64,000 nt of DNA from Escherichia coli (GTDB lineage: Bacteria; Pseudomonadota; Gammaproteobacteria; Enterobacterales; Enterobacteriaceae): the NCBI RefSeq assembly GCF_045037415.1, contig NZ_CP173438.1. One strand, given 5' to 3'. How positions within the stretch are numbered: position 1 is the first letter of the stretch; each line of letters opens with the position of its first letter. Below the pieces are notes generated by a model. The model did no database searches and was not told the origin of the DNA. It saw only the letters and a list, made by a program, of their open reading frames with translations. Below are positions 1,788-45,347 of the stretch, in pieces. The position numbers and the translations under genes were made by a program.

Positions 1788-2525
1788 TTAAAGGTCTGCA
1801 AATTCCGCAATCGGTGCCATACCGCGAGATTCAAGGAAGTTCAGTAAGCGGCGCGGAGAAACATTCAAAATGCGTTCTGGCGGAAAATCTACCGCGTCGA
1901 GGATTTTAAGACACTCTTCAAATTCCCCCATGGTAAATGCAGTGTGAGAATCCGAGCCTAATGCCACCCAACCTCCAGCGTCACGTACCGCTGCAGCTAC
2001 CGCACGACAGTTGTCTTCACTGCCCTTACGTGAGTGTAAAAATGAGGAATTATTGATTTCCAGCGCCACCTGATATTTCGCGGCTGCTTCAGCAACGGCT
2101 TTAACATCTATCTCATATTTCGGATTTCCGGGATGGCTTATTATATGCACATTGCCGCTGGCGATAGTGGCGATCATCGCTTGTGTATTGGTTGCTTTGT
2201 CATGTGGCGCAAAAACCGGCTCATGAAAACCGGCAATAATCAGATCCAGCGAATCAAACATTTTGCCGCTGCAATCAATTTCACCATCAACATTTTTAAT
2301 GTTAGCTTCGATGCCGCGCAGGATCCCTACCCCATCAACCACTCGCGGCCAGATACGCATGTTAATGAAGTGCCAGTGATGCGGCGCATCTTCCATATCC
2401 GGGCCATGATCGGTGATCGCAAAAAGTTTAATGCCCTTTTGTTTGGCCTGGGCAATGTAATCACTCAATGTGCTATATGCATGCGTGCTGGCAACGGTAT
2501 GCATATGAAGGTCGACGGGATACAT
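1788..2525 (-). CDS. ycdX: PHP-family zinc phosphoesterase YcdX
   Basis: 245-aa [21 protein letters not shown]… with PHP-domain His motifs. Confidence 0.9.
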
Positions 2526-44234: not shown

Positions 44235-44282
44235 ATTAGCAACAAGCGGAACATCACCTCGCACGGGGTGATGTTCACAAAA

Positions 44283-44456
44283 TCACATTATTTTGATTTT
44301 GACATCATAACTTTCAAGCCCGGTCATTTTTTCTCGTGCGGTGAAGCGAATTTCAGAGACTTCTTTCCCTGTATTCTTGTTCAGCTCGGCGATTTTTTGC
44401 GCGATAAAGTCGGCGATTTCCGTTTCGGCTTGTTTTTTTAACTCTTCAATATTCAC
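44283..44456 (-). CDS. gnsA: Small protein GnsA, GTG start
   Basis: Reverse-strand translation VNIEELKKQAETEIADFIAQKIAELNKNTGKEVSEIRFTAREKMTGLESYDVKIKIM, 57 aa; not in ORF track. Confidence 0.75.
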   Translation of the reverse strand: MNIEELKKQAETEIADFIAQKIAELNKNTGKEVSEIRFTAREKMTGLESYDVKIKIM

Positions 44457-44676
44457 TGTTAACCTCTTCTGGTCTTAAAAGACAGCAACACGCCAGTAAG
44501 GTGTTGGTTCCCGGTACCCTGGTCAGGTAAGAAATGTTATAAGCCATCTCCCCGAAAGATTCAATAATCAACAGGTTATCGCTTACTATACATACAGCGT
44601 TGAAGAAAAATAAGGCAGATATAAAAAAGGCTCCACGAGGGAGCCTGATATTATTTTGTGAAATCCAGCGGCGCAT
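44446..44676 (-). CDS. ymcE: Dubious small ORF YmcE
   Basis: 76-aa frame MRRWISQNNIRLPRGAFF…; a strong terminator-like hairpin lies inside its 5' end. Confidence 0.35.
   Translation of the reverse strand: MRRWISQNNIRLPRGAFFISALFFFNAVCIVSDNLLIIESFGEMAYNISYLTRVPGTNTLLACCCLLRPEEVNSEY
44621..44645 (-). terminator. Probable rho-independent terminator of the cspG transcript
   Basis: Stem ggctcc/ggagcc with 5-nt loop followed on minus strand by T-run (plus-strand A-run 44622-44628). Confidence 0.5.
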
Positions 44677-44849
44677 GGTCAGTGCGTATTTGCAGCGCAA
44701 CGTTATCAAAGGTGATCATCGTCGATTTACAAAAAATGCACTTTGCACCCAAAGGGTTTCGCTCCGTCACATCGAATGCCGATGTGCGGTACTGTGAACC
44801 ATGGCAACATGGACAGCGGAAATGGAGATGTTGAGTAATAACGGCAACC

Positions 44850-45062
44850 TTAGAGCGTAACAACGTTCGCTGCCGCGGGACCACGTTGCCCCTGCTCAAT
44901 AGAAAATTCAACTTTCTGATTTTCGTTCAGCGTGCGGAATTCATTGCTCTGGATGGCAGTGAAATGGACGAAAACGTCTTTGCTGCCATCATCAGGAGTG
45001 ATAAAGCCAAAACCTTTATCTGCGTTAAACCATTTTACTAAACCAGTCATTTTATTAGACAT
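44850..45062 (-). CDS. cspG: Cold-shock protein CspG
   Basis: 70-aa [24 protein letters not shown]…. Confidence 0.9.
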
Positions 45063-45347
45063 ATTTTACTTCCTTCATTTTGGGCCTTTCGGCAAACAGG
45101 GCTTTAATACAGAAACTACTTAGTGTTCAGGAGAGAGACTCAAAAGAAGGGGATAATGCCTGATAATGAGAACTGCTTTAGTAAACTACTTTGTATGCTG
45201 TCTGTCTTTCAAACCGACGCAGCTATTAACGCATGATAATTGAGATTAAGCAAATTTTATTTTAGCCGTCCGGCGGTCTTAAATATCGCTGGCTTTATTT
45301 TATTAACCCCGTATAGTGCAGCGCAGTATTTTCAGTAAGGAATTTGT

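Follow-up and report, generated by a model that had tools for sequence, protein, structure and literature searches.

In reviews and modelling papers, ymcE and gnsA of Escherichia coli are classed as a type II toxin-antitoxin pair, with Wei et al. 2015 as the cited source. YmcE has a Pfam family, an NCBIfam equivalog and entries in toxin-antitoxin lists, and the protein has been taken up in recent papers on modelling and fold switching. The original papers on sfa/gnsA are reportedly those of Rock in 1996 and Sugai in 2001. Overexpression of GnsA raises the unsaturated fatty acids, while overexpression of ymcE from the ASKA library gave a small effect on butanol tolerance. On a multicopy plasmid, gnsA alone was tolerated and acted as a growth-rescuing suppressor in two studies, and this rescue of growth does not fit with a toxin which needs YmcE. 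The locus resembles type II toxin-antitoxin operons in having two small overlapping ORFs on the same strand, of which the upstream one is the proposed antitoxin. It differs from them in that ymcE and gnsA do not occur together outside Escherichia, ymcE shows no purifying selection, a terminator is placed between the start codon of ymcE and the remainder of the pair, and GnsA is tolerated alone in multicopy.

Another described relative of this locus is the cassette found in Qin of E. coli K-12 (cspI - ynfQ - ynfR - ynfN - gnsB) and in lambdoid phages, where the order csp - ymcF - terminator - ynfN - gns was observed in 69 of 80 phage contigs. These cassettes share with the cspG locus a ymcF-type gene with an ATT start 10-13 nt past the csp stop and the same conserved block 5' of the gns gene. 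In Qin the hairpin AAGGCUCC-UUCG-GGAGCUUUUUU is situated directly past the stop of the ymcF-type gene, as at the cspG locus, and the hairpin is crossed by a short ORF in the ymcE frame, which reads 'KAPSGAFLL' in Qin and 'RLPRGAFFI' in ymcE. This ORF, ynfR, has 21 codons and starts 2 nt past the ynfQ stop. Cold shock strongly induced the SPA-tagged product of ynfR (VanOrsdel 2018, PMC6001520); therefore, read-through RNA is made in the cold, and an ORF that spans such a terminator can be translated. Unlike Qin, the chromosomal cspG locus has no ynfN, and its terminator and gnsA block, separated by about 40-41 nt, are fused into the 76-codon ORF of ymcE.

The locus was analysed in a window of 64,000 nucleotides, which here means the whole stretch of E. 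coli DNA under study. Over the 951 bases searched, the window is 100% identical with strain SK1144, and its identity with K-12 is about 99%. The features of the locus are listed in Table 1. The 5' UTR and coding sequence of cspG match the Rfam model of the cspA thermoregulator (RF01766) with 160 bits, and the ATT start of ymcF lies 13 nt past the cspG stop. The annotated ymcE overlaps the last 26 nt of ymcF and the first 11 nt of gnsA, and the terminator occupies its codons 11-19. The 76-codon ORF of ymcE is intact in most E. coli. Taken together, the data make it likely, and we hold it with good confidence, that the hairpin is the Rho-independent terminator of a cold-shock unit of two genes, cspG-ymcF, that ymcE is not an independent gene and that gnsA is expressed mainly from its own promoter. 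The RNA 3' end at the hairpin was already published; the added value of the present analysis is the evidence for YmcE (PF15939) as a probable artefact which spans the terminator and the gnsA control region.

Table 1. Position and basis of the features of the cspG-gnsA locus in the window.
Feature	Position	Strand	Description	Basis
cspG	44850..45062	minus	70 aa; first gene of the hairpin-terminated unit; stop 44852-44850	RefSeq, ORF list, Pfam CSD
ymcF	44651..44839	minus	62 aa; CxxC...CxxC zinc ribbon; annotated ATT start	RefSeq; Pfam PF23641
ymcE (annotated ORF)	44446..44676	minus	76 aa; ATG 44676-44674	RefSeq
Terminator stem-loop AGGCUCC-CUCGU-GGAGCCU	44628..44646	minus		Sequence, consensus scan, folding
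U-tract	44621..44628	minus	T6 at 44628-44623, then AU	Published Term-seq 3' ends
Variable spacer 3' of the terminator	44581..44621	minus		Alignment of Escherichia lineages
Nucleotide-conserved block 5' of gnsA	44457..44580	minus	Putative promoter and leader	Alignment
gnsA	44283..44456	minus	57 aa; GTG start	RefSeq; Pfam PF08178
Hairpin GAACATCACC-N8-GGTGATGTTC after gnsA	44244..44276	minus		Sequence; published Term-seq

Read on the minus strand, the hairpin is composed of AGGCTCC (44646-44640), the loop CTCGT (44639-44635) and GGAGCCT (44634-44628), followed by T6 (44628-44623) and then ATATC. Both the sequence and the consensus scan gave a perfect 7-bp stem with 5 G-C pairs, a 5-nt loop and U6. 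The stem begins 4 nt past the TAA of ymcF (44653-44651), 204 nt past the cspG stop and 30 nt past the ATG of ymcE, and the T-run ends 53-55 nt past the same ATG. The original prediction had placed a hairpin and T-run at 44621-44645, about 205 nt past the cspG stop and 30-55 nt inside the ymcE start; the sequence and the consensus scan agree with its coordinates within 1 nt, and both distances were borne out. The folding energy of the bare hairpin is -11.2 kcal/mol. In a 61-nt context it is -13.5 kcal/mol, with an unremarkable z-score of -1.7, and a permissive consensus scan of 5.5 kb found 12 sites where shuffled sequence gave 6.4 +/- 3.4, a difference that alone is not significant. A modest z-score and comparable site numbers in shuffled sequence are what a chance inverted repeat without a role in termination would give. 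However, a strict definition (7-bp stem of Watson-Crick pairs without mismatch, 5 or more of them G-C, a loop of 3-8 nt, and 5 or more T among the 6 bases that follow) left 5 sites when both strands of the 64-kb window were scanned, compared with 0.17 in a dinucleotide shuffle. Moreover, RNA 3' ends are mapped exactly onto the U-tract and the position is kept across genera with 28 different stems. The chance repeat, to which we give hardly any probability, is refuted by the Term-seq ends together with the comparison of genomes.

In the published Term-seq tables of K-12, a 3' end is listed at 1051901 in LB at OD 0.4 with 4,284 reads and at 1051900 in the third tab (M63 glucose according to the file caption) with 10,359 reads (Adams et al. 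2021, PMC7815308). As the K-12 sequence is identical here, these coordinates are transferable to the window, where 1051900 corresponds to 44623, the last U, and 1051901 to 44622, the A after the run. Ends on the U-tract are present in two of the three growth conditions of these tables. In the same source the end has a Rho score of 0.51 ('No'), and its intrinsic-terminator score is 8.09, where the threshold is 3 and other sites of the table reach up to about 21 (PMC7815308). There the end is labelled 'internal' and assigned to ymcE because ymcF is missing from the annotation that was used; with ymcF counted, the 3' end becomes a primary one that lies 28-29 nt past a stop codon. The mapped ends demonstrate release of the transcript at 44623/44622 by the cspG-ymcF terminator. 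In mechanistic terms, RNA polymerase coming from the cspG promoter pauses on the U-tract, whereupon the 7-bp G+C-rich stem forms 4 nt past the ymcF stop and the transcript leaves at the last U.

All these features are those of canonical intrinsic terminators of E. coli, which likewise have a 7-bp G+C-rich stem, a 5-nt loop and U6 a few nt past a stop codon, with 3' ends on the U-tract that are insensitive to Rho inhibition. No mechanistic difference was found from them, and the sole peculiarity is that the ymcE ORF is annotated across the hairpin. As a terminator the hairpin is ordinary, and it had been mapped before. Strand-specific coverage at 37 C, a temperature at which cspG expression is low, was 468 upstream and 569 downstream of the terminator, a comparison which is confounded by the probable gnsA promoter; the coverage is not lower past the terminator probably because gnsA has its own promoter. 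The TERMITe supplement has no entry for the genes of the cspG/ymcF/ymcE/gnsA locus.

The hairpin had been proposed to be the cspG terminator, preceded by a long 3' UTR. The Term-seq ends and the conservation support a functional terminator of a unit which starts at cspG, but the unit is cspG-ymcF, with the hairpin directly behind ymcF. The long 3' UTR did not survive, as YmcF is encoded in the stretch of roughly 200 nt from cspG to the hairpin, and the hairpin is therefore the cspG-ymcF terminator. YmcF matches Pfam PF23641 with E=1.6e-49 and is represented by at least 137 protein clusters from Enterobacteriaceae (Citrobacter, Salmonella, Klebsiella, Enterobacter, Kosakonia and others) and phages. 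Among 8 Escherichia lineages, the variable sites of ymcF are distributed over codon positions 1, 2 and 3 as 5/4/27, and among 10 E. coli strains the ratio of synonymous to non-synonymous changes is 14:1. ymcF is a real gene which evolves as a protein.

Conservation of the terminator was analysed in 80 loci, taken from one genome per species, and in 80 phage or prophage contigs. The positional test scored a hairpin with T-run starting -3 to +12 nt from the ymcF stop, and random anchors in the same DNA served as the reference. A formal covariation count was rejected since any such alignment would derive from the hairpin scan and be circular; the random-anchor test was taken instead. Hairpin and T-run were present at this position in 32 of the 39 loci of other genera in which ymcF is csp-linked, as against 1.5% of the random anchors, and in 10 of 40 loci with a stand-alone ymcF. 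They were found in 74 of the 80 phage or prophage loci. The hairpin matches comprise 28 distinct 5' stem arms; in relatives it is the structure of the terminator rather than its sequence that is conserved. Within the 8 Escherichia lineages and 10 E. coli strains, both stem arms and the T-run are invariant and the loop alone varies (CTCGT, CTCGC, CTTGT).

The frame of ymcE is less stable than the hairpin it crosses. Conservation of the hairpin versus that of the ymcE frame had been suggested as a check, and it came out in favour of the hairpin, with invariant stems and a frame broken in 3 of 8 lineages (a 1-nt deletion in E. whittamii and in Escherichia sp. E1V33, and deletions of -2 and -1 in E. 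coli E69). The start codon is ATG in 4 of the 8 lineages, AGG in 3 and ATA in 1; counting the frame breaks as well, 5 of 8 have lost one or the other. In strain Z0117EC0005 the allele is frameshifted and called a pseudogene by PGAP. Among 8 E. coli strains, 5 protein alleles of YmcE and 1 frameshifted copy were observed, while GnsA has a single protein allele in the 7 strains with intact gnsA. In Shigella, an IS4-family element is inserted inside the hairpin with an 11-bp duplication (CCCTCGTGGAG), which splits ymcE and leaves gnsA intact.

Substitution patterns were compared in the same sets of 10 E. coli strains and 8 Escherichia lineages. Excluding the overlaps, the variable sites of ymcE are spread flatly over the three codon positions among the lineages (13/8/10; chi-square p=0.54), a pattern different from that of ymcF and gnsA (Fisher p=3e-4); for gnsA the corresponding counts are 7/1/18 with a synonymous to non-synonymous ratio of 5:0 in the strains. 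In the 10 strains, ymcE shows a ratio of 2:8 along with 1 frameshift, compared with 23:3 in cspG, ymcF and gnsA (p=2e-4). On these comparisons ymcE evolves like non-coding DNA, and it is the gene annotation, not the terminator, that appears as the odd part of the locus. Among 5.8 billion proteins, the homologues of YmcE amount to 28 clusters, none of them from outside Escherichia/Shigella, and many of the clusters are truncated, extended or fused. The ORF matches Pfam PF15939 (YmcE_antitoxin) with E=1.6e-56 as well as the NCBIfam equivalog; the Pfam match is trivial, as the family has no members other than this ORF of Escherichia/Shigella.

Signals of translation initiation were looked for in the sequence and in two published data sets. 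No purine-rich Shine-Dalgarno was found in the sequence before the ymcE ATG. In five in vitro replicates of INRI-seq, no initiation peak was seen at 1051847 although the RNA was in the pool, and the Ribo-RET column (Meydan 2019) likewise has no ymcE peak. The missing peak is hence weak evidence, since many true genes in the table lack one. To our knowledge, neither the INRI-seq nor the in vivo Ribo-RET data sampled cold shock. The doubt that had been raised over the translation of ymcE is justified by the unconserved start and frame, the neutral substitutions, the missing Shine-Dalgarno and the missing initiation peak in the two data sets. From its pattern of evolution, ymcE is most likely not a protein-coding gene under selection.

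These data also bear on the possibility that ymcE is a genuine but young protein restricted to Escherichia, the proposed antitoxin of GnsA, which is made from transcripts reading through the ymcF terminator, so that the terminator limits the YmcE-GnsA message coming from the cspG promoter. An ORF that most E. coli keep open and that shares 11 nt with gnsA, an overlap of the kind seen in many toxin-antitoxin pairs, agrees with such a protein, as do the existing Pfam PF15939 and NCBIfam models, the listing of the pair in the literature, the ASKA overexpression phenotype and the translation of YnfR across the paralogous terminator. We regard it as quite improbable because of the selection data: the pattern within E. 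coli is neutral, with 2 synonymous and 8 non-synonymous changes and 1 frameshift, no codon periodicity is present at the genus level, and start codon or frame is lost in most lineages. Lack of a Shine-Dalgarno and of an initiation peak, the Shigella element that interrupts ymcE and spares gnsA, and the tolerated and beneficial gnsA in multicopy also speak against it. Furthermore, ymcE and gnsA do not co-occur, as gnsA or gnsB is conserved without any YmcE homologue in Citrobacter, Qin and 71 phage loci. In the supposed pair, the terminator is found 30-55 nt inside the first ORF, and a promoter-like block is found inside ymcE too. YmcE, and with it the label 'GnsA-YmcE toxin-antitoxin', is probably an annotation artefact, even though some YmcE polypeptide may arise from rare read-through transcripts.

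The part of ymcE downstream of the terminator is divided into two regions of different conservation. In the spacer (44581-44621), 18 of 41 columns are variable in Escherichia and indels are present. In the block 44580-44457, 11 of 124 columns are variable in the genus, and its conservation exceeds that of the coding sequences on either side; codon periodicity was looked for in the block and none was found in the Escherichia alignment. The block holds a -35-like TTGAAT (44564-44559), a 17-nt spacer and a -10-like TATAAC (44541-44536), the latter without the usually conserved final T. It also holds CTGGCGYGTTG...ACAGACCAGAAGAGGT, which ends in the gnsA Shine-Dalgarno, with AAGAGG at 44468-44463. 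In 38 distinct sequences, the same block recurs 5' of Citrobacter gnsA, Qin gnsB and the gns genes of phage contigs. We take the block 44580-44457 to be a putative promoter and leader of gnsA. The second half of ymcE coincides with this promoter-like block and leader, which precedes every gnsA and gnsB, and ymcE appears to be built from the terminator and the gnsA control region. The ORF would then be one frame that happens to be open from the last 26 nt of ymcF through the terminator (read as 'IRLPRGAFF') and a fast-evolving spacer into the gnsA block with its leader.

From the conserved block and the undropped coverage, gnsA would be expressed mainly from its own promoter 3' of the terminator, and read-through from cspG may add to its expression in the cold. 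A TATAGT/TATAAT hexamer at 44591-44586 was also considered as gnsA promoter; it has no acceptable -35, occurs in Escherichia only and ranks below the conserved block. Conserved RNA structure was searched in the gnsA leader, where RNAalifold gave 3 pairs and no covariation. The single-sequence fold is weaker than that of shuffles (z=+1.0), and a riboswitch or thermometer in this leader was rejected.

Comparison of the cassettes suggests how such an ORF could have come into being. In several Citrobacter chromosomes, the terminator and the conserved block are separated by an ORF of 76 residues that resembles YnfN. The ancestral cassette would have been csp - ymcF - terminator - ynfN - conserved block - gns, an order which is dominant in lambdoid prophages and present in Citrobacter. 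Loss of ynfN in Escherichia would have brought the terminator and the gnsA block together. With ynfN absent from the cspG locus, 41 nt separate the two, and a single frame runs open from the ymcF end into gnsA, which is the annotated 'ymcE'. A relationship of YmcE with YnfN, the ORF 5' of gnsB, was looked for and no alignment between them was found.

The conserved order also raises the question of whether the terminator is regulated. Proteins of the Csp family act as transcription antiterminators, as is reported in work by Bae and colleagues that appeared in PNAS in 2000. The terminator could then be a conditional attenuator, which ends the RNA at 37 C and is melted by CspA-family proteins accumulated in the cold, so that transcription from the strongly induced cspG promoter would extend into gnsA and tie a regulator of unsaturated fatty acids to the cold response. 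This is compatible with the reading of the hairpin as the cspG-ymcF terminator. It agrees with the csp - ymcF - terminator - gns order kept in 69 of 80 phage loci, with the strong cold induction of YnfR tagged past the cspI terminator, with a 'ymcE' array probe which rises together with cspG at 15 C and with the increase of unsaturated fatty acids on GnsA overexpression. We nevertheless consider such an attenuator unlikely. Leak-through from a promoter induced about 100-fold would be enough to account for the YnfR and array results, with no regulation involved, the conserved promoter-like block past the terminator suggests that the gns genes are independent of read-through, and in prophages read-through may be more simply attributed to late-gene (Q-type) antitermination. 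A fuller version, in which Csp proteins relieve the terminator of their own operon, turning on gnsA as a control of membrane fluidity and allowing translation of the terminator-spanning ORF, would make the locus a candidate feed-forward circuit derived from phages; this cold gate we hold to be decidedly doubtful.

A different role for the hairpin is offered by the Salmonella candidate sRNA STnc220 (RF02077), which is like the E. coli locus in comprising the 3' end of a ymcF homologue and the terminator at the same genomic position. The functional product could accordingly be a stable 3'-end-derived sRNA, homologous to STnc220 and made of the last ~40 nt of ymcF and the terminator, which acts in trans and uses the terminator as Hfq-binding 3' end. 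In two Salmonella loci the model scores 102 bits at the homologous place, above its gathering score of 60; it aligns over its full length to window 44693-44613, and Term-seq 3' ends are abundant at the hairpin. In E. coli, however, the match reaches 34.1 bits and is below the gathering score. The shared sequence is mostly the conserved C-terminus of YmcF and a generic terminator, and the upstream part evolves as coding sequence. STnc220 is a candidate sRNA, with trans action putative in both species, and no mention of it was found in a literature search. We know of no 5' end, Hfq binding or target of such an RNA. On balance a trans-acting sRNA from this site appears very improbable.

With the hairpin as the end of a cspG-ymcF unit, the practical value of the analysis is a correction of the annotation into two units, cspG-ymcF with its terminator and gnsA. 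If this reading is true, the label 'GnsA toxin / YmcE antitoxin' is to be dropped, and phenotypes of ymcE or sfa clones are to be re-read as effects of gnsA or of its control region. For the hairpin after gnsA, a published Term-seq 3' end at K-12 1052279 corresponds to window 44244 (Adams et al. 2021, PMC7815308). This hairpin is convergent with yccM, which is situated on the plus strand and faces the gnsA side of the locus.

On the minus strand cspG is followed by ymcF. Wherever ymcF is linked to csp, its aligned first codon is either ATT or ATC, both in the genome loci (39/39) and in the viral loci (78/78). Stand-alone ymcF copies mostly have ATG at this position. Since the non-canonical start is conserved, comparison of the sequences suggests that ymcF may be controlled by coupling or re-initiation after csp, or by an IF3-sensitive mechanism. 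The 5' UTR and coding sequence of cspG match the cspA thermoregulator model of Rfam. In the window, the terminator portion of this model has no counterpart directly after cspG, which is consistent with a single terminator common to cspG and ymcF.

Features considered in the window and in the compared loci (L-numbers; coordinates local to each locus)
Feature	Position	Strand	Remark
ymcF annotated start codon ATT	window 44839-44837	minus	13 nt past cspG stop
cspA thermoregulator (Rfam) match, cspG 5' UTR and CDS	window 44796-45218	minus	160 bits
Non-coding block 5' of gnsA	window 44457-44580	minus	alignment A4
10-bp hairpin 3' of gnsA	window 44244-44276	minus	
ynfR, 21 aa	L083 1889-1954	minus	K-12 Qin prophage
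RefSeq ynfQ (b4724), 62-aa YmcF paralogue	L083 1957-2145		adjoining cspI
IS4-family element within terminator hairpin	L172 410-500 and 1830-1870		Shigella chromosome CP026807.1
STnc220, Salmonella candidate sRNA	L014 and L023, both 2147-2226		Rfam match, 102 bits
gnsA annotated frameshift	L084 695-867		O157:H7 strain BB24-1
ymcE annotated frameshift	L085 475-704		strain Z0117EC0005
torS annotated frameshift	L001 3562-3951		strain SK1144

In the Qin paralogue of the locus, ynfR starts 2 nt past the ynfQ stop and most of its coding sequence is supplied by the cspI-ynfQ terminator hairpin. Tagged YnfR is induced by cold shock (VanOrsdel 2018, PMC6001520), implying read-through of this terminator. 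The name ynfQ is in use for two ORFs: RefSeq b4724 versus, in the same study, a 37-aa ORF between ydfJ and ydfK.

In Salmonella, STnc220 consists of the 3' end of the ymcF homologue together with its terminator; no mention of STnc220 was found in the literature searched. In Shigella, the IS4-family element is flanked by an 11-bp target duplication, CCCTCGTGGAG. The insertion deprives the cspG-ymcF unit of its U-tract and interrupts ymcE but leaves gnsA whole, and the hybrid protein was present on at least 135 contigs.

In alignment A4, the block that precedes gnsA shows stronger conservation than the adjoining genes; it is also present ahead of gnsA in Citrobacter, gnsB in Qin and the gns genes of phages. 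It contains the motifs GATTATTGAAT and CTGGCGYGTTG...CAGACCAGAAGAGG. A conserved RNA structure was sought in the block and not found, and the block is a putative promoter or operator. The hairpin past gnsA is followed by few U residues and is common to gnsA and the convergent yccM; Term-seq places an RNA 3' end there, at K-12 1052279, equivalent to window 44244 (Adams et al. 2021, PMC7815308). Four further sites in the window (+604, +60930, -29386 and -12112) pass the strict hairpin and T-run definition (perfect 7-bp stem with at least five G-C pairs, loop of 3-8 nt, at least five T in the next six bases).

The frameshifts annotated in gnsA, ymcE and torS may be genuine, or they may stem from homopolymer sequencing errors. 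SK1144 is identical to the window across the region compared.
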